IMG/VR virus record: IMGVR_UViG_3300036766_001793
Location: 101,485-165,484 of that record
Direction: 5' to 3' (one strand)
DNA: 64,000 bases
Source: a virus
Shown here piece by piece: positions 1,481 through 62,670 of the stretch. Both the position numbers and the translations under genes were made by a program. Each line of letters begins with the position of its first letter. Position 1 is the first letter of the stretch. The notes below the pieces were generated by a model. The model was not told the origin of the DNA and made no database searches. It saw only the letters and a program-made list of their open reading frames with translations.

Positions 1481-1621
1481 CCGACGCCCTGCGGGGGCTT
1501 CCCCGCACTCCCCGGCCCGGCGGCCATCCCTTCGCGGGGGCGTTGCGATGCGCCGCTGGCTCGGCTAAGTCCCGGGCTGCGCCCTGGTATCCGGCGGCGG
1601 CCCCTTAGTCCGGGGCGTCGG
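1481..1621 (-). ncRNA. Putative structured ncRNA (~140 nt)
   Basis: 9-bp closing stem CCGACGCCC/GGGCGTCGG enclosing hairpins; sits exactly between two tRNAs. Confidence 0.5.
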
Positions 1622-2429
1622 TGCTGTGGTGCCGGCAGAGGGATTCGAACCCCCAATGCGCGGACGCGCCTGCTCTACAGGCAGGTGCCCTTCCTACTGG
1701 GCGTCGCCGGCGTGCTGCCCCACGATGGGGTTGCCCTGGCGGAACTCCGAGAAGGACCTGGCCCTCCCGTCGCCCCCTGGCCCCGAAGAGCTCGAGCGGC
1801 GCGAGGCCGGCGGCCGGCCTCGATGCGGCGCTGAGCCTCTGGTCCACCACCTGGCGTCCCCTGAGGTTGCTGTAGCTGGTCAGCAGGATCTCGCCCCCGG
1901 CGACGTGGGCCCTCTTGTTGCTCCTGGCCTCGCCCCGCCACTGGGAGGCCGCCCTGGCGTCCCTCGGGTCGAGGAACAGGGTCGCGTCGCTCCACGGGCC
2001 GCCGTCCCTGGAGGACCGGCCGTCCTTGAAGGAGTACGACCCGCCCATCTTGGTCCTGAAGCCTGTCTCGCCACGCTGCAGGCGGCCAGGCTCCTGCGTC
2101 GCGCTTGGCCCGCCGCTGGGCGGCCCAGGGCTCCTGTGGGCGGCGGCCGAGCCACTGGGCAGCTGGTCGGGCCGGGCCGCCTCCGGTTTCGGCCGCCCCT
2201 GGCCGAACCGCTCACCGCGTTCCCCGTACCGTTTCGCCCACTCCTGCCTGGCCCGCTCGCCTATCGCCCTGCCTGGGTGGCCCCCTGCCGGGGCCTCGTA
2301 GTACCGCCCGCCCCTCGGGCCGACCTTGACGTCGGCGCCTGCCGGGGCTCTGCCCCTCCTGCCGAGGTGCACGCGGTTGACCTCGCCGGAGAGCGCGATG
2401 ACTGAGTCCAGGGTGGAGGCGAGGTCCAT
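1605..2429 (-). CDS. GPRGG-motif protein 1 (3' end uncertain, possible frameshift)
   Basis: RVHLGRRGRAPAGADVKVGPRGGRYY; the ORF as read runs through tRNA-Tyr. Confidence 0.7.
   Translation of the reverse strand: MDLASTLDSVIALSGEVNRVHLGRRGRAPAGADVKVGPRGGRYYEAPAGGHPGRAIGERARQEWAKRYGERGERFGQGRPKPEAARPDQLPSGSAAAHRSPGPPSGGPSATQEPGRLQRGETGFRTKMGGSYSFKDGRSSRDGGPWSDATLFLDPRDARAASQWRGEARSNKRAHVAGGEILLTSYSNLRGRQVVDQRLSAASRPAAGLAPLELFGARGRREGQVLLGVPPGQPHRGAARRRRPVGRAPACRAGASAHWGFESLCRHHSTDAPD
1627..1711 (-). tRNA. tRNA-Tyr(GTA)
   Basis: Loop CTGTAGA, variable arm, CCA end. Confidence 0.92.
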
Positions 2430-2476
2430 CCGCATACCATACCGCCGGCACCAACGGAATGGTACCCTTGTGCTGC

Positions 2477-2550
2477 TGGCTCCGGCGCAGGGAGTCGAAC
2501 CCCGATGAACAGGTTAACAGCCTGTCGTCTTACCCTTGGACGACGCCGGA
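2477..2550 (-). tRNA. tRNA-Asn(GTT)
   Basis: Loop CTGTTAA, CCA end. Confidence 0.93.
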
Positions 2551-2570
2551 ATGCATAGCTGACGCTGCTT

Positions 2571-2638
2571 TGACGCGGGCCGTCCGTCTCGAGCGGACGC
2601 CTCCCCGAGGGGGTGTGCTGTCTTTACACCAGGCCTGC
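2571..2638 (-). ncRNA. tRNA-like RNA with a stunted anticodon arm
   Basis: Acceptor-like stem, D-arm GTGT/GCAC, T-arm GTCCG-CTCGAGA-CGGAC; anticodon arm only CCCC-CTC-GGGG; ends TCA. Confidence 0.6.
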
Positions 2639-2641
2639 GCT

Positions 2642-2714
2642 TGGAACCCGCCGGCCGAGTCCAACGGCCACCTCCGGCCCCGCGGCCGGTGCGCTGACGC
2701 TACGCCAGACGGGT
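2642..2714 (-). ncRNA. tRNA-like RNA or pseudo-tRNA with a 6-nt anticodon loop
   Basis: Full cloverleaf with CCA; loop CGCGGG has no U33; T-loop TTGGACT. Confidence 0.7.
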
Positions 2715-2719
2715 TGCTT

Positions 2720-2805
2720 TGGTCGAAGAGGAGGGGGTCGAACCCTCACGCCCTTCCGGGCACAGGCCTCTCATGCCTGCGCGTATGCCGTTTCGCCACT
2801 CTCCG
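2720..2805 (-). tRNA. tRNA-Leu(GAG)
   Basis: Loop ATGAGAG, long variable arm, A73, CCA. Confidence 0.9.
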
Positions 2806-3015
2806 GTTCTTGTGGGGGCGCGCTGAGCTCCAGTTGCTTTACGCCAGCGGCCCTGTGGGGCCTGTACCTCCCCCTGCTTGGCTATGCCCGGGAGCCGTCC
2901 TCCGACCCGGTGGTCGCCGGGCGCGGCGGGCCCTTGGGCCCAGACGGCCCCTGCGGGGACGCCTGGGTCTGCGGCTCCGGGGCCTTCGGTCTCTCGAGCA
3001 CCTGCGTCTGGGCCG

Positions 3016-3273
3016 TCATGCGGTCGCCGGCTTGGGCACGTTTCCGTACCAGCGCTCTATGACCTCCAGCGGGCGCCAGGCCTCTGCCGGGCACTCGGAG
3101 AACCCTTCCTGGGCCCGCCCGGTGAAGTTCACCCTCCGCTCGAGGCGGGCCGCCTGGAGCTCGGGGTACCTGTCGCAGTATTCGCAGGCCGCCGGCGCGT
3201 GGAGGACCTGCGCGTCGCAGTGCGGGAACGGCGCGTCGGAGTCGAACCCGTCGCGCTCCCTGGTGAATCTCAT
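3016..3273 (-). CDS. Phage hypothetical metal-binding protein (FPHCD...LHAP..CEYCD)
   Basis: AGGAG RBS; Cys/His motif. Confidence 0.75.
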   Translation of the reverse strand: MRFTRERDGFDSDAPFPHCDAQVLHAPAACEYCDRYPELQAARLERRVNFTGRAQEGFSECPAEAWRPLEVIERWYGNVPKPATA

Positions 3274-3294
3274 CTCGTGTTCTCCTACTCTTCT

Positions 3295-3369
3295 TGGTAC
3301 CTCCGGCGGGATTCGAACCTGCACTTCCTGGATTAAAAGTCCAGTACGCTGCCATTACGTCACAGAGGC
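3295..3369 (-). tRNA. tRNA-Lys(TTT)
   Basis: Loop CTTTTAA, CCA. Confidence 0.93.
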
Positions 3370-3382
3370 ACCTTACACATTC

Positions 3383-3458
3383 TGGAGCGGCCGGCGGGGC
3401 TCGAACCCGCGGTCTCCGCCTTGGCGAGGCGGCGCGCTGCCAGCTGCGCCACGGCCGC
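3383..3458 (-). tRNA. tRNA-Gly(GCC)
   Basis: Loop TCGCCAA (C33), U73, CCA. Confidence 0.9.
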
Positions 3459-3598
3459 GAAGGGGGGGCGCATTGCGCCCCCGGTGGAATCCTACTCCGG
3501 GGACTGGCCCCGTTTCAGATTCGCTATTGCGGGGGACCGCCTGCCCCTTCCCCACGCACTCCGGCCCCCTCACCTGCGGGGCCGGCCCCGGACTTCCT
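3459..3598 (-). ncRNA. Putative structured ncRNA (~140 nt)
   Basis: Several GC hairpins, no credible ORF, between tRNAs. Confidence 0.4.
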
Positions 3599-3675
3599 TG
3601 GTCAGTGAGGAGGGAGTCGAACCCACGGCCTCTTCGTCCCGAACGAAGCGCTCTGCCAGACTGAGCTACACACTG
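3599..3675 (-). tRNA. tRNA-Pro(CGG)
   Basis: Loop TTCGGGA, CCA. Confidence 0.92.
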
Positions 3676-3679
3676 ACAT

Positions 3680-4030
3680 TCTAGGCCGCCACGCGGCTGG
3701 TCACCAATTTTGGTTCGGCCCTCGCCAGGCCCAGCGGCGGTCAAGCCTCTGGCTCTCCCCGGGTCGGGCCTCCCCTCAACGACTGTCGACCGTCCGACCC
3801 GGCCCGGTGACTAGCCGACACCTGGTCCTGACAGCCTCACGTAGCCTAATCGGCAACGCCCGCTTCCCGCGCGCCGGTATGCCCTCTCGCTGGCCTCCGC
3901 CTGGCTGAGGCGCGCGATCGGTCTTGGGAGGGGGCCGACCGCGCCGCGGCGGTCAACCCGCGAGGGCCGGCCCCCTCCCTCGGGGGCGGTGACTGGCCGC
4001 CGTCCTCTCATCAGTCCGATCCTAATACAA
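3680..4030 (-). ncRNA. Putative large structured ncRNA(s) (~350 nt)
   Basis: Long helices (CGGCTAGTCACC/GGTGACCAGCCG; CCGGGTCGG/CCGACCCGG); motifs shared with other spacers; no credible ORF. Confidence 0.55.
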
Positions 4031-4034
4031 CCTT

Positions 4035-4108
4035 TGGTCAGGGAGGAGGGGGACGATCCCTCTCCACGCGGTCCCAAACCGCGAATGCAGCCCCTACACC
4101 ACTCCCTG
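4035..4108 (-). tRNA. tRNA-Pro(TGG), atypical T-loop
   Basis: Loop TTTGGGA; T-loop ATCGTCC; CCA. Confidence 0.82.
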
Positions 4109-4109
4109 G

Positions 4110-4275
4110 TTAGCGTCGCCCAGTCCTACTCCGATATGGCCATCTCTCAAAGAGTACCGAGCTCTCGGTTGGGCCGCCCGCCAGCATCTCCCGGGGGGCG
4201 GTCGTCCCTCAGCGCCTTTCGCCCTCTCCCCGGCGTCGGTGACTGGCCGACACAGGTTACCGAGAGATCATCGCA
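4110..4275 (-). ncRNA. Putative structured ncRNA (~165 nt)
   Basis: CTCTCGGT/ACCGAGAG helix enclosing the recurrent GTCGGCCAGTCACCG motif. Confidence 0.45.
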
Positions 4276-4277
4276 AT

Positions 4278-4354
4278 TGGTCAAGCTGGCGGGGATCGAA
4301 CCCACGGCCTCGTGACCCCCAGTCACGCGCGCTGCCAAACTGCGCCACAGCCTG
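4278..4354 (-). tRNA. tRNA-Pro(GGG)
   Basis: Loop CTGGGGG, CCA. Confidence 0.92.
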
Positions 4355-4355
4355 A

Positions 4356-4526
4356 TGGCCCCGCGGCGCCAGGTTCGCCCCTGCAATCCCCCTCTTCGGG
4401 GGCCGGGGCCCTCCGGCCCTCGGGGCCGGCCTGGCGTGAAGGGAGTTACCGCCCGGCGGGGGGAGCTTGCCTTGCCACCCGCCGGGGGCCCGAGGTGGTC
4501 AGCGGACGGCAAGCCGCCCGCGGGGT
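4356..4526 (-). ncRNA. CCA-terminated non-tRNA structured RNA (~170 nt)
   Basis: 5' CCCCGCGG pairs with 3' CCGCGGGG followed by CCA; internal multi-stem domain. Confidence 0.55.
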
Positions 4527-4529
4527 TTC

Positions 4530-4603
4530 TGGGGTGCAGGACGGGATTCGAACCCGTATCAGCTGGGTCACAGCCGGCCGTTCTGCCCTTGAACTACCCG
4601 CAC
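4530..4603 (-). tRNA. tRNA-His(GTG)
   Basis: Loop CTGTGAC, C73, CCA; no encoded G-1. Confidence 0.9.
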
Positions 4604-4704
4604 ATGGGGCCCCGTTGACTGCGGGCCCATTCCGCGACCGGCACGGAGCTCACACCGGCAGCTTGGCCTGGCCCTCGCGGACGCGTAGGAGGCTCTAAGG
4701 TGGA

Positions 4705-4778
4705 TGGTGGCCTCGAGGGGACTCGAACCCCTTCCTCGTCCTTGAGAGGGACGTGTCCTGCCGTTAGACCACGAGGCC
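4705..4778 (-). tRNA. tRNA-Glu(CTC)
   Basis: Loop CTCTCAA, CCA. Confidence 0.93.
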
Positions 4779-4815
4779 GCGGCCTGAGGCCGCGCTCTCG
4801 GCCTGGCTGGGTGGG

Positions 4816-4890
4816 TGGTGGTCCCGGCGGGGGTCGAACCCGCCCCTGGCGCTTGAAAGGCGCCCGTCCTGACCGCTAGACCACGGGACC
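4816..4890 (-). tRNA. tRNA-Glu(TTC)
   Basis: Loop CTTTCAA, CCA. Confidence 0.93.
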
Positions 4891-4891
4891 G

Positions 4892-5050
4892 TGGCTGCTT
4901 GCCCCCGGGTGAGCCAGTTCTTCGCTGGCGGCCGAGTCGGTACCGGTTTTCCCCGGGCGCAGTGGCCCGCCACTATTCGCGGCGCGGCGACTGGCGGCTC
5001 GTTCGGCCCTCCGACCGGGCCTGGCCGCTACGCTGCGCGCCGCTAGGCGG
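4892..5050 (-). ncRNA. Putative structured ncRNA (~160 nt)
   Basis: Hairpin-rich; shares GAGGGCCGAAC with the 3680-4030 element. Confidence 0.45.
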
Positions 5051-5053
5051 ATG

Positions 5054-5128
5054 TGGTACCCGCGCCGGGAGTCGAACCCGGACCTCAACTTTAGGGGAGT
5101 TGCGTCCTATCCATTGGACCACGTGGGC
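5054..5128 (-). tRNA. tRNA-Arg(CCT)
   Basis: Loop CCCCTAA (C33), CCA. Confidence 0.9.
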
Positions 5129-5135
5129 ATCTGTC

Positions 5136-5282
5136 TGGCGGCGGGGATGGCGCCCCGCCGCGATCTGAAGGTTCCCGCTGAGACCAGCCCCGCGGGAAGT
5201 GACCCCCGGTGACTACTAGCCGGCGGACTATACCCCCCTGGGGCCGTCCTGAACCGCGATCGGAGGGCGCCGCGCGCCCGCC
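5136..5282 (-). ncRNA. CCA-terminated non-tRNA structured RNA (~147 nt)
   Basis: GGCGGG/CCCGCC-G-CCA acceptor-like end; GGCGCCC/GGGCGCC helix. Confidence 0.55.
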
Positions 5283-5287
5283 TTCTC

Positions 5288-5362
5288 TGGTGCCCCAGGA
5301 CGGAATCGAACCGCCTGCTCCCTCCGTGTAGAGGAGGAGCTCTTCCGGTGAGCTACTGGGGC
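5288..5362 (-). tRNA. tRNA-Val(TAC)
   Basis: Loop TCTACAC (C33), A73, CCA. Confidence 0.88.
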
Positions 5363-5422
5363 GAGTCATCCCCCAGATAGTACCGGGGGCGGATTAGGTA
5401 TTCGCGGGGCTCTCCGGCCCCT

Positions 5423-5485
5423 TGGCGGGCCGCCGGGCGGGGCGTAGCCCCGCCGCTGGCTGGTGTGAATCTGCCATAGCGACCC
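5423..5485 (-). ncRNA. Minimal CCA-terminated tRNA-like RNA (~63 nt)
   Basis: 7-bp GGGTCGC/GCGGCCC + G + CCA; GGCGGGG-CTACG-CCCCGCC hairpin; no anticodon arm. Confidence 0.5.
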
Positions 5486-5498
5486 CTTTCGGCTTGAT

Positions 5499-5573
5499 TG
5501 GCAGGAGCGGCGGGAATCGAACCCGCATCTTCAGTTTTGGAGACTGGCGCCCTAGCCTTTGGACGACGCACCT
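5499..5573 (-). tRNA. tRNA-Trp(CCA)
   Basis: Loop CTCCAAA, G73, CCA. Confidence 0.92.
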
Positions 5574-5587
5574 ACTGCCTGAATGAC

Positions 5588-5593
5588 AGGATA
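5588..5593 (-). promoter_or_regulatory. Putative -10 box (GG-TATCCT) for the tRNA array
   Basis: TAnnnT hexamer 15 nt upstream of the first tRNA; same pattern as other promoters in the window. Confidence 0.5.
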
Positions 5594-5633
5594 CCGCGCC
5601 GGCCGCGGCTTGTACACCCCGCCCGGGCGCTTT

Positions 5634-6071
5634 TCAGTGTTTCCCCAGCCGCTCGAGGAATGAGATGAAGCGCCCGTTGGTCAGGGCCCCGGGCCTCCTG
5701 GACCTCATGTACCTGATGAGCTCCGGCCCGGATCTGCCCGTCAGCTTGTGGACGGCCATCGCGTTGACGAGGGAGGACCTGTTCAGGCCGGCCGCGCAGT
5801 GGACCAGCACGCGCCCGCCGGACGACACGGCGGAGCACACCCTGGAGACCACCTCGTCGAGGTCCTCGCGGTCCGGGAGTGGCCCGTCCTCTATCTGCCA
5901 CCTGAGCTCTGTGAACGGCCCGCGGCCGCCGCCGCCGGAGAACGGTGGGTCCCCGTTGAGGTTCACCACGTAGTCTATGCCGAGGTCGAGGACCTCGCCC
6001 TCGCCCTCCCGGCCCTGGACAGACCCGGACTGCCAGAGCCTGCCGGGGATGATCTCATAGAGCTCGGTCAT
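5634..6071 (-). CDS. Dual-specificity / protein-tyrosine phosphatase family
   Basis: VLVHCAAGLNRS (HCX5R) and an IEDG acid loop. Confidence 0.92.
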   Translation of the reverse strand: MTELYEIIPGRLWQSGSVQGREGEGEVLDLGIDYVVNLNGDPPFSGGGGRGPFTELRWQIEDGPLPDREDLDEVVSRVCSAVSSGGRVLVHCAAGLNRSSLVNAMAVHKLTGRSGPELIRYMRSRRPGALTNGRFISFLERLGKH

Positions 6072-7066
6072 CCGGCCGCCCGCCGGGAGCTGACGGCCGC
6101 GACGACCGCCGCCGGGAAGACCCCCTTGGCCAGAAGGCCGCTGACGAGTATGGCCTCGTCGTGTGAGTAGCTCTTCTGCGAGAGGAGCGGGTCCACCTCG
6201 ATGTCGATCTCTTGGTCGCCGAACAGGTCCGCCATCGGGTCGCTCTTCATGGCCTCCACGATGACGTGGTCGTCCTCCGCGGTCACGTCCAGGTCAGAAG
6301 CCCCGAGGGCCCTCTCCACGAGCCTGGTCGCCTTCTCCGCCTCTCCGTCGCTCCTGCCGCGCCCGTAGACCTCGAAGCAATCGTCTCGTGCGCTGATCTC
6401 GTACCCCGCGGTGGACCTGCCGTCCGCGAGCTTCCTGGCCTGCGGGATCTTGGCGGCGGAAAGGATTTCCCTGATCCTGGCAATGGTGCTCTCGAATGGC
6501 TCCTCGACGTCCACCGTCTGGGAGGTCCTCGGGGTTGGCTTGACCTCTCTGGTGGGGTTGGAGCTGGGCTGCTCGGCGACCACCGCCATCGACCCCGCCC
6601 CGCGCTTCGCTCCGGCCTCCTGGGCGGCCTTCCCGCGGGTGGGAACCTCGAAGAACCTGCCGCCGCGTGGGCCCTCCTGGACGAACACAGACGGCGGGGC
6701 CTCCTCCCCCTCGCGCAGGTACTGGCGCTCCTTCGGGAGCGGGGACCTCTCCCCGGAATCGGTCTCTTTGACGGCGAAGTACTCCTGCTTCGTCTTCTGC
6801 CTGGTGAGTGCCGTCGGATCATGCTCCGGGCCGCCGCGGCGCCCTTGCGCCTTGGCCACGAACCTGGATACCTCCGCCGCCAGATCGACTAGGCTATTGG
6901 CATAGCTGTTGGTCATCTTGGACTCCCTATCTGACTCCTCGAAGGACTTCCCCTGGTAGCCGTGGGCGTACGCAGCCCTGGCCTGGCGCTGGGCGCCAGC
7001 CTCGCTGGGGTACACGTGTCCGTGCTCGCCCCACTTGTAGCCGCCCTTGACCTTGTGAACTGGCAC
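6068..7066 (-). CDS. GPRGG-motif protein 2 (putative virion internal protein)
   Basis: RQYLREGEEAPPSVFVQEGPRGGRFF; N-terminal MPVHKVKGGYKWG module. Confidence 0.8.
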   Translation of the reverse strand: MPVHKVKGGYKWGEHGHVYPSEAGAQRQARAAYAHGYQGKSFEESDRESKMTNSYANSLVDLAAEVSRFVAKAQGRRGGPEHDPTALTRQKTKQEYFAVKETDSGERSPLPKERQYLREGEEAPPSVFVQEGPRGGRFFEVPTRGKAAQEAGAKRGAGSMAVVAEQPSSNPTREVKPTPRTSQTVDVEEPFESTIARIREILSAAKIPQARKLADGRSTAGYEISARDDCFEVYGRGRSDGEAEKATRLVERALGASDLDVTAEDDHVIVEAMKSDPMADLFGDQEIDIEVDPLLSQKSYSHDEAILVSGLLAKGVFPAAVVAAVSSRRAAG

Positions 7067-7075
7067 CGTTCTATC

Positions 7076-8074
7076 CTACGCCAGCGCCGGCCTGCCACCA
7101 AACCTGCGGGACACCGAGGTGGCCAGGTCCATCGCGTCCTCCAGCTCTGACTGCGGCGACGGGCCCTCCCGCCTGATGCGCTCCGCCACCAGCCTCACGG
7201 TCCCCTCCCATTCCTTCCGCTGTCCGTGGAGGGTCATGGATCCGCCCTGCGAGAACCAGAGCCGGTCATATTCCTCGGGGTGGTAGGTCTCCATCCAGCT
7301 CTCGTAGAACTGGGCCGGCACCCACCTGTGTACCTGCTCGCGGCACTCGAGCTCGGCCCTGTCGGCTTCCTTCATCTTCTGGTAGGTTCGCCCACCGAGG
7401 CCCCAGTGGTCCCAGGGGAAGTCCATCCACTTGCCTCCGCCGGCTGGCTCCCACCCGTCCTTGAAGACGAGCTCCCTGGAATCGAGGTCATCGAGGATGG
7501 CCATTCCGTACTGGCCGTCGCTGAACTCGGCGACTGCGGCCACGTCCCTGCTCAGGTATCTCTGGACAGCCGCTCTCTGCCTGTCCCTCATGCCCCTGAC
7601 GAACGGCGCGTACCGGCCGTCGTCCCGCCCCATCGCCTTGCCGGCGGCCTTAGCGACCTTCCCGCCGCCTCTGACGGCTATCGGCCTGGCTTCGAGCTCC
7701 ATGAGCTCCCCCGCCGACAGGTCGCGCGGTCTCGGTTCCCTCCTGAGCTCGAGCTTGGCCCTCGCCCTCGCCGCCTTCCGCCGCCCCGCAGTCCACTCCC
7801 TGTGGGCGTCGCTGCCGTCGGGAACGAAGAAGCGCCCACCGCGCTGGCCGGTCTGGACGTCCGCCCCCTGTGGGCCCTCCTCACCCTCGCGGAGGTACGT
7901 GCGGCGGCCGTCCTCTGGCGCCGCCTTCTCCTCCAGGGTGGCGCCCTCACGGATCTCCCTGATGGCCGCCACCATGTCAGAGTCGTCATTGAGGTCGTAT
8001 TCGGAGTCGTCGGAAGCCCACGGCACGACCCCCCTGGGAAGCTGGATCGGGACCGGTCGGTCAGGCATCGCCAC
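7076..8074 (-). CDS. GPRGG-motif protein 3
   Basis: EEKAAPEDGRRTYLREGEEGPQGADVQTGQRGGRFF. Confidence 0.8.
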   Translation of the reverse strand: MAMPDRPVPIQLPRGVVPWASDDSEYDLNDDSDMVAAIREIREGATLEEKAAPEDGRRTYLREGEEGPQGADVQTGQRGGRFFVPDGSDAHREWTAGRRKAARARAKLELRREPRPRDLSAGELMELEARPIAVRGGGKVAKAAGKAMGRDDGRYAPFVRGMRDRQRAAVQRYLSRDVAAVAEFSDGQYGMAILDDLDSRELVFKDGWEPAGGGKWMDFPWDHWGLGGRTYQKMKEADRAELECREQVHRWVPAQFYESWMETYHPEEYDRLWFSQGGSMTLHGQRKEWEGTVRLVAERIRREGPSPQSELEDAMDLATSVSRRFGGRPALA

Positions 8075-9557
8075 CCCTTCCCCTCTCGTAGTACCTCTGC
8101 CCTATAGCGTACCCGGGGGACCCCTCCTCGAGGCTCTTGGCCCCGTCCCAGTCGTCGACGTAGTCGCTGAGGAGGAACGCCTTGCCGAGGTGCCCGCTCC
8201 CCTGCTTAGATTTGGTGCTCCAGGCGTGCTCCTTACCGTCGTCCAGGGCCGCAAAGTCCCATGCATGCTCCAGCCCGCCGTTCTCCCTCGAGAGCCTCTC
8301 GAACCTCGCGGCGTCTGAGTTGGCAAGCACCTGGCGCATCCCCTGCGACCCGAGAACCATCCTCTCGTCTCCCATCCTCACCACGTAGTGGTTTGGTCCC
8401 TCGATGCCGACGACCTCGCCATCGCCATGCTGGCTGTCAAACCTGGCGCCGACGGCTGGCTTGGTCGCGAGGTACCCCCTCAGCCGGCCCCTCATCTCCT
8501 CGGCCGCGCGGGAGCCTCTGAAGTCGTAGCCTTGGAGGGCCCACACGTATTTCCCCACGTCTATGTCGGCGTTCAGGTAGATGGAGGTGAGGCCGGCCGC
8601 CCTGTAGCTCTCCTCGGCCCTCTCGTTCAGCCTGGCGGCGAGCCCGCGGCCCTGGTGCTCGGAGGAGATCACGAAGGTGTCGTGCTCCACGGACCCGTCC
8701 GCGTTGAACGACCTCAGCATCGTGCCGACGTCCCTGCCAGTCTCCGGGTCGGTGATTGTGAACCGGACCTTCACGAACTCGTTCCCGCGCTCATCCACCT
8801 CGGCGCGGACTGAGACCCCGGCCCCTCCATACAGCCTGGAGAAGTCCGCCGGGCTGCCGCGCTCTATCAGGTCCTCGAACCGCATGGAGGCCCTCGCCTG
8901 GATCTCGGCCCTGCCAGACTGGAGGGCGGAGCGGATCTGGTCCTCCGGGATCTCAGCGTCCCCGTCTGGGCCGCGAATCAGGGCCAAGCCCTCACGGACG
9001 TCGAGCACGTCGAACCGCTTCCCGCCGACGCTGATGGTCTCCCCGACGAGGTCGTTCCCGACGCCGTCGCCGTCGTCGTCCTCCATGGAGAGGCGGTCGT
9101 CGATCGAAGCCTCGTCCTCCACCGAGACCGCCCCGCTGCTGAGGTTCTTCACCTCGTACAGGCCGTTGCCTATGGCGCGCTGGACGCGGTAGACCTCCCC
9201 GCCGCCGACCCACTCAGCACCTGTGTAGTCGTCCCCCGGGTCGTCCTCCTCGTCTGGGGCCTGGGTGATCGTCCCCGCTGACGCCATGGCCACCACGTCC
9301 TCCCTGGGCACCCCGTCGTAGACCCTGCCGTCGTCCCTGAGCAGGACCCACGTGCCGTCGGCCGCCTCGTCCACGACCGTGAAGGACCTGCCGTTGGGGT
9401 CGTCCCACGCGAGGCCTGAAAGCCCTCCGGAGAGGCTGGTGGCCACCTCGCTGGTCTCGTAGTAGAGGCCTCCGCGCGGGCCCTCCTCCACCGTGGTGCC
9501 CGTGGGAGCCTCACCTGGGTCGTCCACGTATGTCTTTGGTTCGTCCAGATGCACCAT
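8061..9557 (-). CDS. GPRGG-motif protein 4 with a C-terminal GNAT-like domain
   Basis: KTYVDDPGEAPTGTTVEEGPRGGLYY; short repeated beta-rich modules; HQGRGLA...VGKYVWALQGYDF. Confidence 0.8.
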   Translation of the reverse strand: MVHLDEPKTYVDDPGEAPTGTTVEEGPRGGLYYETSEVATSLSGGLSGLAWDDPNGRSFTVVDEAADGTWVLLRDDGRVYDGVPREDVVAMASAGTITQAPDEEDDPGDDYTGAEWVGGGEVYRVQRAIGNGLYEVKNLSSGAVSVEDEASIDDRLSMEDDDGDGVGNDLVGETISVGGKRFDVLDVREGLALIRGPDGDAEIPEDQIRSALQSGRAEIQARASMRFEDLIERGSPADFSRLYGGAGVSVRAEVDERGNEFVKVRFTITDPETGRDVGTMLRSFNADGSVEHDTFVISSEHQGRGLAARLNERAEESYRAAGLTSIYLNADIDVGKYVWALQGYDFRGSRAAEEMRGRLRGYLATKPAVGARFDSQHGDGEVVGIEGPNHYVVRMGDERMVLGSQGMRQVLANSDAARFERLSRENGGLEHAWDFAALDDGKEHAWSTKSKQGSGHLGKAFLLSDYVDDWDGAKSLEEGSPGYAIGQRYYERGRGGDA

Positions 9558-9578
9558 CACATCATCCTGCCGAGGGCT

Positions 9579-9612
9579 AAAAAAGGGGGCCCCCACCGTG
9601 GCGGGGCCCCCT
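9579..9612 (-). terminator. Intrinsic terminator
   Basis: GGGGGCCCC/GGGGCCCCC stem followed by T6 on the minus strand. Confidence 0.9.
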
Positions 9613-9632
9613 CTGGTCTGAGGACCAGCCTA

Positions 9633-12287: not shown

Positions 12288-12367
12288 GTGTGGTACCTCT
12301 TTCCTTGTCTGTGCGCAGCCGGGCATCGCCCCGGCCCCTCGTCCCCGACGGGGGATTTGATGTCTCT

Positions 12368-13093: not shown

Positions 13094-13120
13094 GCAACCA
13101 TGGTACCGGGCGTCAGAAGA

Positions 13121-20059: not shown

Positions 20060-21646
20060 CTACTTCAGCGGGCGCTGGGCGTAGGCGGCCCCCTTGTACA
20101 CATTGGCCGAGCTCGGGACGACCACGGGATCTGAAGACCAGCGACCCATGCTCGGGTTGCGCTCGCCCGGACTCAGGGACGGGTGGTCGTTCCGAGCAGG
20201 GTCTTCATCGAGCCCAGCCGCAAACTCGGAGAAGATGTCCTCGGCGACGACCATGGCCGCCTGCTTGGCGACGTCTGGGTCCTCGTGCGGGTTAGTCCTC
20301 ATGAACAGGTCTGCGAGCGGGTCCACGAGGTCGTAGGCGTCGTCGTGGCTGAGGTCTCCCGCCCTGGCGGACCTGGCCCACTCCCGCTTGAACTGGCCCT
20401 GCAGCCGCCCTCCCGCCGGATCGTTGTCCGCCATGTCTCGCATGCGCTCGCCGTAGTCGTCGGCCGTGGCCTCACTCTCCTCCCTCGACCTCTGCGGCCT
20501 GCGGACCTTCAGCGACTGGACCTCCTCCACGTCCTTGGGGTGGAGCTGCCCGCCGCTGTCCGTGACGAACCGGCCGCCGCGCGGCCCCTGCTGGACGTTG
20601 GTCCCCTGCGGCGGCTGCTCGTCCGGCCTCAGGTAGCGGACGTCTTCGGCCGCCTTCTCCTCCCGGCGCTCGGCCGGCCAGTGACCCGTGCCCTCGTGCT
20701 CGGCCCAGGCGCAGAAGGCGTGCGGGTCGTCGACTGTGCCGCCGACGTGCTCCATGCACTTCGAGTGCGGCCCCTTCGAGACCGACTCCCAGAACTTCCT
20801 GGACGAGCCCCTGCCCCATCCCTTCGGCTTGCCGGCCTTGTTGGCGACCTCGCCGCTGGTCACGCTGCCGGAGTAGGGGCCCTCCGTCTCCGGGTGCTCT
20901 ATGTCGTGCGCCACCGACCCGTAGGCCGGGCGGGCCATCGACCCGTGGATCCCGTCGTCCTCCGGCTCGTCGGCCGGGTAGGACGGCTCGCCGACCGCCT
21001 TCAGGATCGAGTCGCTGACCATGACGACCGCGTCGAGGGACCAGGAGACTGAGCTCTCGAGCTCTTCGTCTGGGTCCACCTCTGGGCCCCTGGCCTTCGC
21101 GAGCCCCTCGCCCTTGAACGTCTTCCCGCTGCGGAGGGACGCCGTCTGGGTCAGGAGGTTGCTGCCGCTCGGCCTCCGCGGCGCCGGTTGGGCCGGCGGG
21201 GCCTTCGGCTTGAGGCTGAAGGTGTGCCCCTGGACGTCGGCGCCCTCGAGCATGTCGTCCCCGAGGATGCGTCGCGCGTCCGTCTCCCTGGTGGCCTGGA
21301 TCTCCTGCAGCCTCCCGCGGAGCTCCTGGATGCGCCTCATCTCCGGCGGGTTGCACTCGCCCTTCCTGGCCTTGTCGTACAGGTCCTTGTACTCGTCGAT
21401 GATCTTGTCTTCCTCGCCGTGCATCGGGTCGGCCGAGGCCTTCCTGTGCCTGAGGGTGACCGGGTGCTCCTCCGGATGGCCGAAATGGCGGTGGGTCAGC
21501 ACCTTCCGATCTGGGCCGGTCTCCGCGACGTGAACCGGCCTCTGCGTATAGGAGGCCTCCACCGCCGGCACCGGGCCGAGCGGGGCTTGGGTCCCGACGG
21601 ACATCCCCTGCTTGTTGACGACTGACTGGCCTACGGCGATAGTCAT
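20060..21646 (-). CDS. GPRGG-motif protein 5 (multi-segment, putative virion internal protein)
   Basis: EEKAAEDVRYLRPDEQPPQGTNVQQGPRGGRFV; many xxK(A/G) sites; C..H...DDPHAFCAW module. Confidence 0.8.
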   Translation of the reverse strand: MTIAVGQSVVNKQGMSVGTQAPLGPVPAVEASYTQRPVHVAETGPDRKVLTHRHFGHPEEHPVTLRHRKASADPMHGEEDKIIDEYKDLYDKARKGECNPPEMRRIQELRGRLQEIQATRETDARRILGDDMLEGADVQGHTFSLKPKAPPAQPAPRRPSGSNLLTQTASLRSGKTFKGEGLAKARGPEVDPDEELESSVSWSLDAVVMVSDSILKAVGEPSYPADEPEDDGIHGSMARPAYGSVAHDIEHPETEGPYSGSVTSGEVANKAGKPKGWGRGSSRKFWESVSKGPHSKCMEHVGGTVDDPHAFCAWAEHEGTGHWPAERREEKAAEDVRYLRPDEQPPQGTNVQQGPRGGRFVTDSGGQLHPKDVEEVQSLKVRRPQRSREESEATADDYGERMRDMADNDPAGGRLQGQFKREWARSARAGDLSHDDAYDLVDPLADLFMRTNPHEDPDVAKQAAMVVAEDIFSEFAAGLDEDPARNDHPSLSPGERNPSMGRWSSDPVVVPSSANVYKGAAYAQRPLK

Positions 21647-30025: not shown

Positions 30026-30642
30026 CACGTCCCGCCCAGGGAGGACAGGTCGGCCCTCCACTGCCTGAGGTCCGGCAGCGCGTCCCCGACGTGCGGGGCG
30101 TCCCAGTCCCTCAGGAACGCGGAGAGCATGCCCTCGACCTCGTCTATCAGCCCTGGGGCGAAGTCCGGGTCGTCCGCCAGGACGCAGCGGTAGATCGGCC
30201 TCATCGCCTGCCTCATGGTCATCGGCGCCCCGGTCACCTCGTTGTCGAACGCCCACACTCCGCCGTCCCGCCCCAGCCCCCAGTTGTTGGCGTGGCGGTC
30301 GCGGTTCCTCATGACGAGGTCCAGGCACGCCATGGCGGCGAGGCCGCGCAGGGCGCGCCCGGTGGCCCTCACCGACCTGAGCAGCCGCTCGCCAGCCAGG
30401 TGGGCCGTCGTGCCGTCCACCATCTCCTGCGCCGTGCCGTGCCGCCCCACGACGACCGTCCGCGGGACCACCCCGCCGAAGTACCTCTCCGACAGCGCGT
30501 ACGCGAACGCCTCGTCCGGGCCACGGCGGAGGACCCACCGCCCGCCGCCGGCGTCCACCGCCACGAGGTGGCCCGACCTGCCGGGGGCCATCTCCCCCGG
30601 GAGCGGCGGTCTCACCTCGACGAACGCGACGTCACGTCCCAT
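30025..30642 (-). CDS. PI3/4-kinase/HipA-like kinase-fold protein
   Basis: EAFAYAL...VP.T...LDLVMRNRDRHANNW...WAFDNE. Confidence 0.75.
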   Translation of the reverse strand: MGRDVAFVEVRPPLPGEMAPGRSGHLVAVDAGGGRWVLRRGPDEAFAYALSERYFGGVVPRTVVVGRHGTAQEMVDGTTAHLAGERLLRSVRATGRALRGLAAMACLDLVMRNRDRHANNWGLGRDGGVWAFDNEVTGAPMTMRQAMRPIYRCVLADDPDFAPGLIDEVEGMLSAFLRDWDAPHVGDALPDLRQWRADLSSLGGT

Positions 30643-35812: not shown

Positions 35813-35814
35813 CT

Positions 35815-36141
35815 CTACCCCTCTATCCTGGCGAGGATGCCGTCGGACGCCATGATGAGGCACTTGCGCTCGCCGCTCGGGCTGTCGTCCGCGAACGCCC
35901 ACCGGCCCCCCTGCCACTCCGCGAAGACGACCCGGTCACCCTCTCGGATGCCCACCATCTCGGCGAGGTCTGGAGCCGCCCTCAGCACAGTCCCGGTCTT
36001 CGTGTTCCCTGCCCGGGGGACGACGATGCCCGCGGAGGAGGGCCGCTCCAGGTCCTCCTCCACCGCGACGTAGTCCGCGGTGAGCCTCAGCGCCGAGAAC
36101 TGCTCCTCGACCCTGGTGTAGCCGGCCAGCTTAATCGCCAT
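35815..36141 (-). CDS. GroES-like co-chaperonin (paralog 2)
   Basis: DYVAV...SSAGIVVP...GTV...GDRVVF.EW.G...ILA. Confidence 0.88.
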   Translation of the reverse strand: MAIKLAGYTRVEEQFSALRLTADYVAVEEDLERPSSAGIVVPRAGNTKTGTVLRAAPDLAEMVGIREGDRVVFAEWQGGRWAFADDSPSGERKCLIMASDGILARIEG

Positions 36142-48566: not shown

Positions 48567-48581
48567 CCTTCAGTCTTCCCC

Positions 48582-52757: not shown

Positions 52758-52764
52758 CTTGCGT

Positions 52765-55398: not shown

Positions 55399-55402
55399 CG
55401 CC

Positions 55403-57266: not shown

Positions 57267-57309
57267 GCCCTGATGGTACCGGGCCGGATCGCGCGCGATC
57301 CCGCATCCT

Positions 57310-57648: not shown

Positions 57649-57650
57649 CC

Positions 57651-58142: not shown

Positions 58143-58275
58143 CGTGGTCTCCTGTACTGTGTTGGGACTAATACACTACTGCCGAGGGGCGCCGCGGCCG
58201 GCAGCGGTGGCGCTAGAAGCAGAGGGCGGCCGATCTGGCCGCCCTCGCTTCATGCTACCCTCGGCGCGCCGTGGG

Positions 58276-59322: not shown

Positions 59323-59399
59323 GTGCACTTGGCGTTCTCCTGTATTTGAGTACGCCCATAGCGTACCAGGCCCGTCTGAAAGCGCCGGCGGAGGATCTC

Positions 59400-59729
59400 C
59401 TACAGGAACCCGACCGCCTGCCCGAAGCGGGAGGCTACCCTTTCCACCATGCCCCTGGTGTGCGGCGGGCATGTGGCGGCCTCCACGAGGACGCGCTGGT
59501 TGCTGAGCGAGGCCAGGAGCCCCTGGACGAAGCCTGGGGCGCAGATGGTCTCTAGGCCGAACCTGATGAGCACCCGGTCTCCCTCGCGCAGCCCCATGCC
59601 CGCGACGATGGACATGGCCCGCTCCCTCGTGGCGAACGTCCTGCCGGAGCCGTCTGAGATTATCCAGAGGCCGCGCTCCCCGTCCCACCTCGACCGCTCC
59701 CGGTGCTCTGGCAGGTCCAGGATTTGCAT
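59400..59729 (-). CDS. STAS-like (DUF4325-like) protein
   Basis: TFATRERA...I.F......PGF. Confidence 0.55.
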   Translation of the reverse strand: MQILDLPEHRERSRWDGERGLWIISDGSGRTFATRERAMSIVAGMGLREGDRVLIRFGLETICAPGFVQGLLASLSNQRVLVEAATCPPHTRGMVERVASRFGQAVGFL

Positions 59730-60379
59730 CAGTCGGCTGCTATGGCGTAGCCTAGGGTCGGCCAGCACTTGCCGCAGTAGCGGAACGGCTCGAACGCGCT
59801 CTTTGCCCCGACCCTGCTCTCCAGGTAGCTCACCCCGTGGCCGACCGTCGCGTCGCAGCCTGAGCACGAGTGGACCTTCCTGGCGGCGCGCACGTTGGCG
59901 TCAGCCGGCTTCCCGTTCAGGGTGATGTTCGTCACCGCCTTCTCGGTCAGCGCGCGCTTGGGGCGGACGGTGGCGATCGGGAGGAACCCATCGTCAGGGA
60001 TCTCCTCTGCCGGCGGCCCGCTCGGGCCGCCGGCCGGCGCGCGGTCTAAGCGCGCTCTCGGGGTGGCCTGGGCGACGACCCCCTGGACGGCGTACCTGGA
60101 GGCGGCCGTCTCCTCCTCCATGGCCCGTATCCGGGCGTCCTCCTCGGAGGTCCACCCCCGGCAGACGTGCTCCACGCTGTGGTCGTCAGCCGTGGCCTTC
60201 TTGGTGCTCCACGAGAACTGTCGGCGGCTGACCCACCACACCCTGAGGTGGCAGCTCGCCAGGGGCCTGTGCCCGGGCGGGGAGATGACGGCAATGCAGA
60301 AGTCGTAGTGGCCGCTCGGGTCATGGTCGCGCTCCTCGGCCTGGGGGGCCGCCGCCTGGTCCTTCGTCTTGCGAGCCAC
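59729..60379 (-). CDS. Hypothetical protein with a C-terminal Zn finger
   Basis: TATAAT and GGAGG upstream; ARK.H.C..C...YC..C. Confidence 0.75.
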   Translation of the reverse strand: MARKTKDQAAAPQAEERDHDPSGHYDFCIAVISPPGHRPLASCHLRVWWVSRRQFSWSTKKATADDHSVEHVCRGWTSEEDARIRAMEEETAASRYAVQGVVAQATPRARLDRAPAGGPSGPPAEEIPDDGFLPIATVRPKRALTEKAVTNITLNGKPADANVRAARKVHSCSGCDATVGHGVSYLESRVGAKSAFEPFRYCGKCWPTLGYAIAAD

Positions 60380-60432
60380 TGGGTCCTCCGTTGGTTTGTG
60401 CTCAGAGGATTATATCATAATCAGTGCCATCT

Positions 60433-60945
60433 CTATGCAGGGAGGACGCCGGGAATGGCTGCCCTGAGTGACTCTTCGAGCACCGCCTCGTATCCCTCGT
60501 CGAACCTCCATTGGAGGCCCCTCGACATGTAGAGGAAGGCCTCGAAGTAGCGGTCCGGGAGGATGGCCCCGGCCTCCACCGGGCAGCCGCCGCGCAGCAT
60601 CCTGCCCGCGGCCTCGGCGTTCTTGGGCCAGAAGCGGAAGGAGCGGGCCTCGAGCAGGTAGGCGACGTGGAAGAGCCCGCCCGGCCTCAGGCCCGCCGCC
60701 ACCTCCCCGATGATGCTCATCTGGGCCCTCTGCTTCATGATCCCCGGGCCGCGCTCGGGGAGCTCGTTCAGGTGGCCCTTGTACTCGAAGTACACGTCCT
60801 CCCCGAGCCCGTACCCGAACAGGTCGATGTCCATGGCCTTCAGCCGCCAGTCGGCCGACAGGTGGAGGGCCATCCTGTACTGGTCGCTCGGGCCATACCG
60901 CCAGGGCCACAGCATCGGCCTTCGCTCGATCGTCCCATCGGTCAT
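60433..60945 (-). CDS. Hypothetical protein, possible PD-(D/E)XK fold
   Basis: MDID...FEYK. Confidence 0.65.
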   Translation of the reverse strand: MTDGTIERRPMLWPWRYGPSDQYRMALHLSADWRLKAMDIDLFGYGLGEDVYFEYKGHLNELPERGPGIMKQRAQMSIIGEVAAGLRPGGLFHVAYLLEARSFRFWPKNAEAAGRMLRGGCPVEAGAILPDRYFEAFLYMSRGLQWRFDEGYEAVLEESLRAAIPGVLPA

Positions 60946-61172
60946 AGCTTCCCCACCTCCGTGAACCTCGGCCTTGACAGCCCGTCCGGCCAGGCGACGA
61001 GCTCGTCGAACCCGGCTGGGCCCTTCATCGGCCTGGCGTTCCACCTCGGGCCGTCAACGTCCTCCAGGTTGATGTAGATCGCCATAGGTTCGCCGGTCTC
61101 GGAGTGCCTGGCGACGCAGACGACGCGGTACAGGCCCCCGTCGCAGTGTCGGTAGAGTCCGGTCCTGAACAT
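60942..61172 (-). CDS. DUF1653 family protein
   Basis: GLYRH..GG.Y.V...ARHSET.E....Y...W..RP...F...RF. Confidence 0.88.
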   Translation of the reverse strand: MFRTGLYRHCDGGLYRVVCVARHSETGEPMAIYINLEDVDGPRWNARPMKGPAGFDELVAWPDGLSRPRFTEVGKL

Positions 61173-61195
61173 CGGCAGCATCGTACCAGGCCCGG

Positions 61196-61399
61196 CTAGG
61201 CCACCATCTGCTGGAGCTCGCGGAGCTTTGCCCCGTAGGCCTCTGCCGCCTGCGCGCGGTCCCTGTACCTGAGCTTCGACTGGGCGGCCAGCGGGTCCCC
61301 GACGGTCCACCCGAGGACGTAGTCCCCATCGTCCTCCAGCCAGAGGGCGCAGAACGTGTCCCCCTGGAACACGCACCCGACGAGGGTTTGCCTGCTCAC
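61196..61399 (-). CDS. Small hypothetical protein
   Basis: Coupled ORF. Confidence 0.6.
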   Translation of the reverse strand: MSRQTLVGCVFQGDTFCALWLEDDGDYVLGWTVGDPLAAQSKLRYRDRAQAAEAYGAKLRELQQMVA

Positions 61400-62670
61400 C
61401 GGCCGCTAATCCTGCCGAGCCTGCGGCGCCACGCGGCGTCCGTGGCTTCGTCCGTCCGCCAGTGCTGGAAGTCGTCCCCGCCGGTCCCGGCGAGCTCCGC
61501 CGGGAGGATGAACGGGCCCCTGGGAGCTGCCGCCGCCGCCACCGAGCGCCGCGTCGGCCTCCTGTCGGCGGAGTGGAGGTACGAGTCCCCGACCGCCCGG
61601 CCCGCGGAGCCGTCCCTGAGGTCCTTCGTCGCCGCCCAGCTGATCCACCAGCGGGACAGCATGAACGCCTTGCCGAGAGGGAATTTCGCTGGGGGGCGGC
61701 CGTCCGCGACGGTGACTTCGTAGAGCTGGCCGTCGTCCAGCGCGGCCAGGTCCCACGAGTGCTCCACGCCGGCAAGAAGCCTCTCCGCCTCCAGGCCGGC
61801 TTGCCTGCGGTCTGAGACCCTGCCAAGGGTCTCGAAAACGAGGAACGACTCGAGCCCCTCCCTGGCCGTTCGTAAATCTCTGATCGGGTCCTTGAAGTCA
61901 TAACCCTGCCTGGCCCACGCGTACTTGCCGACGGTCATGTCCGCCTCGAGGTCCACCCGCCTGAAGCCCATCCTGATGTACGCGCCCTCCGCCTGGCGGT
62001 TCATCCTCGCGGCGAGGGACCCGCCCTGGTGCCCGGGTTCGAGCACGAAGAGGTCGTGGTGGACCGTCCCGGTCCCGGTGTCCATGGAGCGTTGGAGGTT
62101 CCCGACGTTGTTCCCCCGGTCGTCCAGTATCTCGGCCCGCATGCTGACGGTGGCCTCTCCCGAGTAGCCGGGCGACATCCTCATGTTGCCGAGCTGGTAC
62201 CCGGGGGTGTCGTAGATCGCCGCGAAGAGCTCTCTCGCGGCCGCCGGGTCGTCGTTTACCAGTCTCAGGAGGTCGCCGGGGCTCGCTGGCATCTGCCCGC
62301 CGGAGTCCAGCTCGTCGAGCTGCTGGTCCTTGGCGGCGTCCGCCAGGGTCTCGGGGCCCATCCTGGCCGGGCCGCGGGCGGTCTCCACGACCGCGCCGCC
62401 GCTCGGGAGCATCTCGCGCACCCTCGCCGGGCCCGCTGAGGTCGCCACCGCCGCCCCCGGTCGTGGCTCCTGCGCCCTGGCCAGTCTGGCCCCGCGCCTG
62501 GCCGTCCGGCGGCGCTGCTCCCAGCCGCCGTGCCCGGAGGAGGCCCTCCAGCGGAAGAAGCGCCCGCCGCGTGGGCCGGTCTCAGCGCGGGCCCCGGGGG
62601 GCGGCTCCTCGCCGGGCTGCAGGTACACCCTGTCGCCCTCGTGGTAGGCCTTGTTTATCCTGCTGGGCAT
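61396..62670 (-). CDS. GPRGG-motif protein 6 with a GNAT-like domain (paralog of 8061-9557)
   Basis: INKAYHEGDRVYLQPGEEPPPGARAETGPRGGRFF; HQGGSLA...VGKYAWARQGYDF. Confidence 0.82.
   Translation of the reverse strand: MPSRINKAYHEGDRVYLQPGEEPPPGARAETGPRGGRFFRWRASSGHGGWEQRRRTARRGARLARAQEPRPGAAVATSAGPARVREMLPSGGAVVETARGPARMGPETLADAAKDQQLDELDSGGQMPASPGDLLRLVNDDPAAARELFAAIYDTPGYQLGNMRMSPGYSGEATVSMRAEILDDRGNNVGNLQRSMDTGTGTVHHDLFVLEPGHQGGSLAARMNRQAEGAYIRMGFRRVDLEADMTVGKYAWARQGYDFKDPIRDLRTAREGLESFLVFETLGRVSDRRQAGLEAERLLAGVEHSWDLAALDDGQLYEVTVADGRPPAKFPLGKAFMLSRWWISWAATKDLRDGSAGRAVGDSYLHSADRRPTRRSVAAAAAPRGPFILPAELAGTGGDDFQHWRTDEATDAAWRRRLGRISGR

Follow-up and report, generated by a model that had tools for sequence, protein, structure and literature searches.

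The DNA analyzed here (the window) is the final 64 kb, positions 101,485 to 165,484, of IMG/VR virus record IMGVR_UViG_3300036766_001793, a linear record of 165,484 bp (~87% complete, ~67% GC) in which nearly all genes lie on the minus strand. The subject of this report is a short protein element centred on the pentapeptide G[PQ]RGG and referred to below as the GPRGG module. The first-pass annotation had described this motif as occurring once in each of six open reading frames (ORFs) of the window, and had proposed that it is a portable label by which interchangeable cargo is loaded into the phage head. All six copies are present, on the minus strand. A hidden Markov model (HMM) built from them was applied to the complete 165,484-bp genome, translated in six frames. 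The six training copies were recovered, by construction, at E 9e-18 to 9e-20, together with three further copies on which the model had not been trained. The next match in the genome was found only at E 0.1, which gives a total of nine module proteins, designated p1 to p9:

Window 2295..2387, minus strand: module of p1 (G[PQ]RGG at 2307-2321), in ORF 1605-2435
Window 6647..6739, minus strand: module of p2 (G[PQ]RGG at 6659-6673), amino acids (aa) 110-140 of ORF 6068-7066 (332 aa)
Window 7823..7915, minus strand: module of p3 (here GQRGG, at 7835-7849), aa 54-84 of ORF 7076-8074 (332 aa)
Window 9456..9548, minus strand: module of p4 (G[PQ]RGG at 9468-9482), aa 17-47 of ORF 8061-9596
Window 20561..20653, minus strand: internal module of p5 (G[PQ]RGG at 20573-20587), aa 332-362 of ORF 20060-21646 (528 aa)
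Window 62551..62643, minus strand: module of p6 (G[PQ]RGG at 62563-62577), preceded by SRINK↓A (the arrow marks the candidate cleavage point), in ORF 61396-62844 with a probable start near 62670
Genome 59433-60539, minus strand: p9, untrained HMM match, E 2.7e-5
Genome 7262-8770, minus strand: p7, untrained HMM match, E 1.8e-11
Genome 5999-7258, minus strand: p8, untrained HMM match, E 2.6e-12

The gene of p1 had been taken as ORF 1605-2429. The motif is present in it, but a coding signal was detected only at ~1775-2435, and the 3′ tail of the ORF runs through the tRNA-Tyr gene at 1627-1711. A KA dipeptide shortly upstream of the motif, noted earlier for three of the proteins, was confirmed in p3 and p5 (both EEKA) and in p6 (INKA), and also occurs in p9 (IYKA), encoded outside the window. 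In six of the nine proteins the module is placed within the first ~55 residues; in p3, p2 and p5 it lies deeper.

Each of the nine genes combines one module with one cargo. A GNAT-like domain is present in p4 and p6, and p4 contains in addition a conserved C-terminal region. The C-terminal end of a Bacillus phage PBC5 protein, the “minor capsid protein”, is homologous to the p4/p6 cargo and was matched by p4 residues 264-504 (E 2e-13); the PBC5 gene directly follows the terminase gene and a gene in portal position. Protein p7 has a PI3/PI4-kinase-like catalytic loop, and the same cargo was found in three foreign carriers; other local cargo includes a helical domain. The last ~190 aa of p2 and the last ~245 aa of p3 were assigned to no family. 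The ESM Atlas model of p5 is mostly of low confidence, and neither the module nor p5 gave usable results as an Atlas query. The six window proteins had been regarded as unrelated, which is only partly correct, since p4 and p6 (29.5% identity over 427 aa, E 6e-31; C-terminal part in common) and p6 and p7 (39% identity over 160 aa, N-terminal) are paralogous. Weaker similarity beyond the motif links p2 with p3, and p1 with p7 and p8; these weak pairs are uncertain, as the comparison was made without composition correction.

A basic stretch, H/Q-x-x-W-x(2-4)-R-R-(R/K), was observed 6-21 residues after the module in five of the nine local copies (p1, p3, p6, p7 and p8), with a similar H..W in some database carriers (P0051, P0057). 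This stretch may represent a clade-specific extension of the module. The N-terminus of p2 (window 6974-7066, minus strand) contains a separate motif, KGGYKWGEHGHVY / VHKVKGGYKWGEHGHVY (phrog_31267, E 2e-6), of which VHKVKGGYKWGEHGHVY is also encoded by small ORFs in two other phages, Escherichia phage PJNS034 and Roseobacter phage CRP-9.

Sequence, predicted fold and distribution of the module

A conservation profile calculated from 319 unique module instances yielded a 31-residue consensus, L-x-K-[AG]-[RK]-[VI]-Y-[LIV]-x-P-G-E-x-[AP]-P-x-G-[VA]-x-V-Q-x-G-P-R-G-G-x-Y-Y-E. Only from position -22 to position +8 does the information content reach 2-4 bits; it is ~0.3 bits outside, where the E/G/P/K-rich, linker-like flanks show background conservation. 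The most constant positions are P-8 (98%), G-6 (88%), G0 (100%), G3 (98%) and G4 (100%), accompanied by the aromatic residues Y-16 (87%), Y/F+6 (97%) and Y/F+7 (96%). The K (60%) and A/G (39%) at positions -20/-19 are part of the module family-wide. The tag of ~26 residues described by the first-pass annotation is therefore a real shared unit, but one of 31 residues with unconserved flanks.

AlphaFold2, supplied with a 69-sequence alignment, predicted that the RVYL, VxV and xYYE segments form three beta-strands, with a core pLDDT (predicted local distance difference test) of ~87. Judging from this model, the element appears to be a self-contained beta mini-module set within flexible linkers. 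A small three-stranded antiparallel sheet of ~30-35 residues recalls WW domains, as does, by eye, the P-x-G-h...G-x-x-Y-Y spacing. In the module, however, the strand that completes the sheet is N-terminal instead of C-terminal and tryptophans are absent. No WW match was found by Pfam at E<=0.1 in the six local proteins, by PDB sequence search, or by Foldseek and VIA-align with a 45-residue model, itself a weak query; the resemblance was treated as chance.

A profile search of 1.84 billion representative proteins identified 492 clusters at E<=1e-3, 66 of them at E<=1e-10. Many of the matching proteins contain 2-6 module copies, in N-terminal, internal and C-terminal placements. Scanning of IMG/VR for an exact match to a degenerate DNA pattern added 58 loci, in which runs of 2-4 consecutive genes often each carry a module. 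Because 492 clusters match and the GC content of the carriers spans 28-68%, the module is neither a chance similarity nor an artefact of GC composition. The only cultured carriers revealed by tblastn with two consensus peptides are the haloarchaeal siphoviruses HVTV-1/-2 and HCTV-1/-5/-16. Five phages whose major capsid proteins (MCPs) are 66-79% identical to that of this phage retain 4-11 modules each.

The similarity of several local carriers beyond the module (p4/p6, p6/p7, p1/p7/p8) could mean that the shared segment has no common function and is merely the conserved remnant of one expanding paralogous family with diverged C-termini. We consider this explanation highly improbable: across the databases, the surroundings of the module consist of unconserved linkers and of Pfam domains with no relation to each other, several copies occur within single proteins, and 4-11 copies have been kept in every related genome examined.

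The motif was not found to match a known family. A PDB sequence search with the module profile gave 0 matches at E<=10, and an NCBIfam scan of 69 module peptides gave none. Pfam analysis of the six local proteins (E<=0.1) and of 118 foreign carriers revealed no family common to them, LPD families included. In fold searches with the same weak 45-residue query, Foldseek against PDB returned nothing at E<=0.001 and the best Z-score in a wide VIA-align search was 2.6. The string “GPRGG” was encountered in the literature only in collagen, neuropeptide and low-complexity contexts. No description of the module was found in titles and abstracts of the capsid-targeting literature, nor is a 31-residue module mentioned in the searched passages of two papers on polyvalent proteins (PMC5512222; PMC9503650).

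Fusion partners and gene neighbourhoods

Pfam scans of two independent samples, 54 carriers from the databases and 64 from IMG/VR, revealed more than 25 different Pfam domains adjoining the module, which occupies N-terminal, internal or C-terminal positions relative to them. This catalogue of fused domains, suggested as a check by the first-pass annotation, supports its view of the tag as portable. Head proteins are among the partners: Phage_portal was identified in 3/54 and 5/64 carriers, and Peptidase_S78 in 4/54 and 1/64, plus one S78_2 in the IMG/VR sample. Phage_Mu_F co-occurs with the module in 2/64 IMG/VR carriers. The module is located C-terminal to the Phage_portal domain (P0008, P0054) and to the S78 prohead-protease domain (P0014, P0035, P0053, P0019), and in P0019 and L050:10159-12027 it begins ~35-40 residues after an S78-like domain. 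The following layouts were observed:

P0008, P0054: portal-module-X-module
P0014, P0035: S78-DUF5661-module-X-module
P0053: S78-module-SAM (S-adenosylmethionine) lyase-module-ART (ADP-ribosyltransferase, DRAT-like)
P0026: EncFtn/rubrerythrin-like-module...module-TopoIB (topoisomerase IB)

The remaining partners are mostly enzymes. Topoisomerase IB (Topoisom_I) is present in nine carriers, and ADP-ribosyltransferases are represented by ADPrib_exo_Tox, DRAT-like and, in one relative, ART-PolyVal (PF18760) domains. Other domains of effector type are GNAT, zeta toxin, SAM lyase and PI3_PI4 kinase, accompanied by PolyA_pol-type nucleotidyltransferase, NUDIX, PAP2, HD, HNH and ATLF-like metalloprotease domains; rubrerythrin/EncFtn-like, DUF5661 and DUF192 domains complete the list.

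Genes encoding module proteins were found between the portal and capsid genes in three lineages: HVTV-1, a marine phage and the phage studied here. The gene order in HVTV-1 is terminase, portal, gp113 (with a partial module), head assembly gp114, gp115, gp116, head maturation protease and major head protein. In this region of HVTV-1 (L082, NC_020158 68622-73017), gp115, annotated as “zeta toxin”, carries one module (aa 18-46), and gp116, annotated as hypothetical, carries two. The gp114 protein of HCTV-5 combines a module with a zeta toxin and a ParB nuclease, a classic pairing of polyvalent proteins; reviews of haloarchaeal viruses state nothing on the virion location of the zeta-toxin protein. 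In the marine phage (86-88 kb) the order is portal, an 875-aa Nudix/PAP2 protein, module protein, ClpP protease and SU10-type capsid protein. The head genes of the present phage relevant to this comparison are:

Window 30632-35917, minus strand: portal protein, intein-interrupted (phrog_18178, E 1.4e-31)
Genome 89685-94547 (L007:9685-14547), minus strand, outside the window: S78-like prohead-protease polyprotein, 1620 aa
Genome 63971-64846, outside the window: acidic 291-aa scaffold-like protein
Genome 62520-63938, outside the window: MCP (phrog_24667)

The portal gene forms the upstream end of a head-gene interval of ~70 kb, metabolic genes included, in which p5, p4, p3, p2 and p1 are encoded between portal and MCP; p9 lies 2 kb past the MCP gene. 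Directly downstream of p9, 3 kb past the capsid gene, is a gene for a Fic/DOC-family protein (genome 58859-59401, minus strand, L008:859-1401; Pfam E 1e-11), a candidate further effector.

Within 5.4 kb of the IMG/VR module genes, the head and packaging domains comprised SU10_MCP (6), portal (5), S78 (3), ClpP (2) and terminase domains (~7), and those of replication and recombination RecA (7), gp32 (7), exonuclease (5) and PolA (4). Since head and replication neighbours are mixed at these loci, the neighbourhood alone is not decisive. It could even be argued that the module is a localisation or recruitment peptide for a host or replisome hub, and the carriers ordinary early or middle products instead of virion cargo: p5, p6, p7 and p8 are encoded among replication and nucleotide-metabolism genes, and replication genes are frequent neighbours at other loci. 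This seems very unlikely, because fusions to portal, MuF and prohead-protease domains make little sense for a cytoplasmic peptide, and a hub shared by archaeal and bacterial hosts would need to be universal.

The same neighbours (RecA, gp32, exonuclease) are compatible with a small nucleic-acid-binding unit, RGG-like or an aromatic beta-sheet, that would tether enzymes to phage or host DNA or RNA, in the capsid or after entry. Bacterial and archaeal carriers have a single ligand in common, DNA, which would explain the extreme conservation; fusions to TopoIB, PolyA_pol, HNH and HD domains, the ParB/zeta combination of HCTV-5 and the basic H..W..RRR stretch that follows the module in five local copies point in the same direction. 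The module itself is nearly neutral, however, its K, R/K and R being balanced by E, E and E, and it bears no likeness to AT-hooks (ruled out by the lack of an RGR core and by the neutral charge) or to known DNA-binding folds. In addition, its position behind prohead proteases, which act before DNA entry, would be left unexplained, and GNAT, ART and kinase cargoes have no need of DNA tethering. Binding of nucleic acid is thus a quite unlikely function.

Candidate cleavage site and proposed association with the phage head

In ten of ten related phages (genome 62520-63938, L073-L081) the sequence [ILV]-[SN]-K-[ASG] was found 8-17 residues from the N-terminus of the MCP, following leaders that are otherwise variable; the MCP of L081 has the variant TGTK↓A. 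On this comparative basis, a Lys-directed protease probably cleaves the MCP at this sequence during maturation. When the pattern was loosened to [ILVMF][SNY]K[ASG], 21 occurrences were counted among the 43,017 residues of the proteome of this phage. Three of these are in the 291-aa scaffold-like protein, in which the pattern is enriched; the protease polyprotein has two, one of them immediately behind the protease domain, and the capsid N-terminus has one. In p6 (SRINK↓A) and p9 (IYK↓A) the pattern precedes the module by a few residues, and SRINK is also found in the scaffold-like protein. In the family at large, L-x-K-[AG] forms the start of the module. The numbers are small, but the pattern suggests an S78-like, Lys-directed protease that would cut just before the module.

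The candidate enzyme is the 1620-aa polyprotein, which consists of an S78-like domain split by two inteins, followed by NUDIX, DUF5661 and 2H phosphoesterase domains; the intein split in the N-terminal domain falls right after the catalytic-His region. The N-termini of P0019 and L050:10159-12027 share 54-58% identity with this domain, and can in turn be aligned, weakly but over the full length, to the S78 domains found in P0014 and P0035. The stretch LKGYRSESGRMLFEGVADEAAGPKG, located after the protease domain, keeps the K-to-GPxG spacing and has lost other key residues of the module, of which it may be a decayed copy.

These observations could be explained if the module were only a processing or spacer element, that is, a prohead-protease recognition site separating the units of head polyproteins and having no docking role, with p1-p9 as descendants that kept the junction. 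Modules do stand between domains in polyproteins that start with a protease or portal domain, the L-x-K-[AG] border resembles the h-[SN]-K-[ASG] sequence near the MCP N-terminus and in the scaffold, and embedded peptidases are thought, according to passages of PMC5512222, to cut polyvalent proteins into units. Yet a protease site would require far less than 31 conserved residues that include invariant glycines, a proline and aromatics and have a predicted fold, and the best-conserved part, PxG...GPRGGxYY, is 12-28 residues away from the putative scissile bond. Many modules are at the extreme N- or C-terminus, where there is nothing to separate, and the carriers use proteases of ClpP type as well as S78 type. 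We therefore regard a pure processing element as unlikely.

The interpretation that we favour is that the GPRGG module may be a head-association handle for proteins carried within the capsid and delivered with the DNA; on the sequence evidence, we judge the case for it to be evenly balanced. The fusions, the synteny and the cargo repertoire are most simply explained by a marker of head-resident proteins that acts as a docking or retention handle. Each of the nine local genes couples one module to a different or duplicated cargo, and in relatives modules link cargo domains to a preceding portal or prohead-protease domain, or to each other, within polyproteins of the polyvalent type. Within the procapsid the module would bind the scaffold, the inner surface of the capsid, the protease or other module copies. 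The Lys-specific S78-like prohead protease would then cut h-x-K↓[ASG], either at the module or shortly upstream of it, so that module and cargo would stay in the head, and the cargo would be ejected into the host. The element would not simply be an N-terminal leader, since many relatives carry several internal copies per protein. The wider proposal, namely an autonomous cargo handle usable by HK97-fold capsids of bacterial and archaeal tailed viruses in general, whose bearers are captured, trimmed at LxK↓A and ejected, is put forward tentatively.

Several findings weigh against a head-association handle. Three of the module genes (p6, p7 and p8) are outside the portal-MCP interval, near the contig ends and beside replication genes, and elsewhere the neighbours of module genes are as often RecA, gp32, exonuclease and PolA as head genes. 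The L-x-K-[AG] border of the family is out of register in six of the nine local copies (p2 keeps L-P-K). A conserved motif calls for a conserved partner, yet the capsid and scaffold proteins of the carriers are very divergent. This phage has no obvious anchor, because its portal is without a module and its protease polyprotein contains at best a decayed remnant. A role after ejection is equally possible, since the module stays on the cargo if cleavage occurs upstream of it. Co-folding of the module with the MCP and scaffold-like protein of this phage, made without controls, gave a score of 0.00 and speaks neither for nor against binding.

MuF polymorphic toxins were reportedly described by Jamet et al. 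in 2017. The cargo repertoire of the module carriers resembles that of MuF toxins and polyvalent proteins, and supports the head-cargo reading. In passages of two papers on such effectors (PMC5512222; PMC9503650), fusion to MuF, a portal or a capsid-processing serine peptidase is taken as a sign of packaging into the head. As far as these passages go, the two groups share ART, GNAT, zeta toxin, ParB, kinase, Nudix, 2H and peptidase domains, the head-gene context, the fusions to portal, MuF and capsid-processing serine protease domains, and the packaging and injection proposed from them. Like polyvalent proteins, module carriers occur in a head-gene context or fused to MuF or portal in phages with terminase and portal genes. 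Polyvalent proteins are defined there by globular domains, whereas the GPRGG carriers have an inter-domain 31-residue module in common. Several effector domains per chain, a trait of polyvalent proteins, occur in relatives (P0053, P0026) but not in the nine local proteins, this phage having its cargoes in nine separate single-cargo genes instead of one giant polyvalent protein. The parallel with MuF proteins drawn by the first-pass annotation is borne out by their co-occurrence with the module in two relatives and not by the genome itself, in which no PF04233 match was found anywhere in the 165 kb at E<=1; a variable C-terminal domain is nevertheless shared between p4 and the minor capsid protein of PBC5. 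The class of head-packaged, polyvalent-type effectors and the concept of capsid targeting were thus already known; the module itself is absent from the domain libraries searched.

The capsid-targeting sequence (CTS) of phage T4, present in IPI-III and Alt, directly follows the initiator Met as a leader of ~10 residues, which gp21, a protease of a different peptidase family, removes at [LI]xE. The two elements are alike in concept, each being a short portable element on unrelated proteins that is associated with prohead entry and prohead-protease cleavage (for the module, both putative). Unlike the CTS, the module has 31 residues and a predicted beta-sheet, occupies any position, is present in multiple copies and would stay on the cargo if cut at LxK↓A. 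The only prohead-protease candidate in this phage is S78-like and apparently Lys-directed, with the candidate site h-x-K↓[ASG] in place of LxE. Homology with the CTS was rejected, as there is no sequence similarity and length, position, copy number and protease type all differ. What survives of the proposed head-loading address label is its portability and its ties to head genes and head domains; the relation to the T4 CTS and a T4-type protease does not.

Two other systems act on HK97-fold shells through short, unstructured, terminal peptides: the prohead protease gp4 of HK97, said to possess a capsid-targeting C-terminal tail (Duda et al. in 2013), and the cargo-loading peptides reportedly found for encapsulins (Sutter et al. 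in 2008). The module recalls the former by its location directly after the S78 domain in several relatives, and the latter by its location after the EncFtn/rubrerythrin-like domain of P0026. The module is not known to resemble either of them in sequence.

Mass spectrometry of cultured phages is usually the only source of knowledge on head-carried, injected phage proteins. If the module marks head cargo, sequence data could show which arsenal is injected by uncultured large phages and archaeal viruses, and the module alone would predict the packaged effector sets of hundreds of uncultured viruses. This arsenal would cover ADP-ribosyltransferases, acetyltransferases, kinases, topoisomerase IB, SAM lyases, zeta toxins and Nudix proteins, many of which probably act in counter-defence. 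The module may also indicate that archaeal and bacterial viruses have in common a way of loading the head that differs from the T4 CTS, and it might then be of use as a programmable tag for loading foreign proteins into capsids. Even if the idea of loading is wrong, the 492 clusters constitute a widespread, strongly conserved mini-domain for which there is no Pfam or NCBIfam model.

Other genes of the window

Megablast analysis of 20 kb of the window revealed no cultured relative at the DNA level. The replication genes of the window encode DNA polymerase A, a DnaB-like helicase, a primase and a UvsX-like recombinase, and those of nucleotide and RNA metabolism thymidylate synthase, a class I/II-type ribonucleotide reductase, polynucleotide kinase and RNA ligase. 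Outside the window, several very large proteins are encoded beside the protease polyprotein, scaffold-like protein and MCP, in the same direction of transcription. Two further features of the window are:

Window 36678-39200, minus strand: terminase large subunit with an intein/HNH insert (phrog_38, E 3.7e-31)
Window 233-5573, minus strand: array of 19 tRNA genes

The gene of p1 sits within the tRNA array, one member of which has an odd anticodon loop (called as tRNA-???, 2642-2714). An 897-aa protein with SpaA-type prealbumin-like fold domains (window 9633-12326, minus strand; Pfam E 1e-7) is encoded directly upstream of the p4-p3-p2 cluster and holds two h-[SN]-K-[AS] sites. Inteins that carry a LAGLIDADG or HNH endonuclease were identified in an exonuclease (window 13121-15703, minus strand), in the portal protein (at least two inserts) and in the terminase large subunit, an intein load which, counting also the protease polyprotein, is unusually high for one phage.

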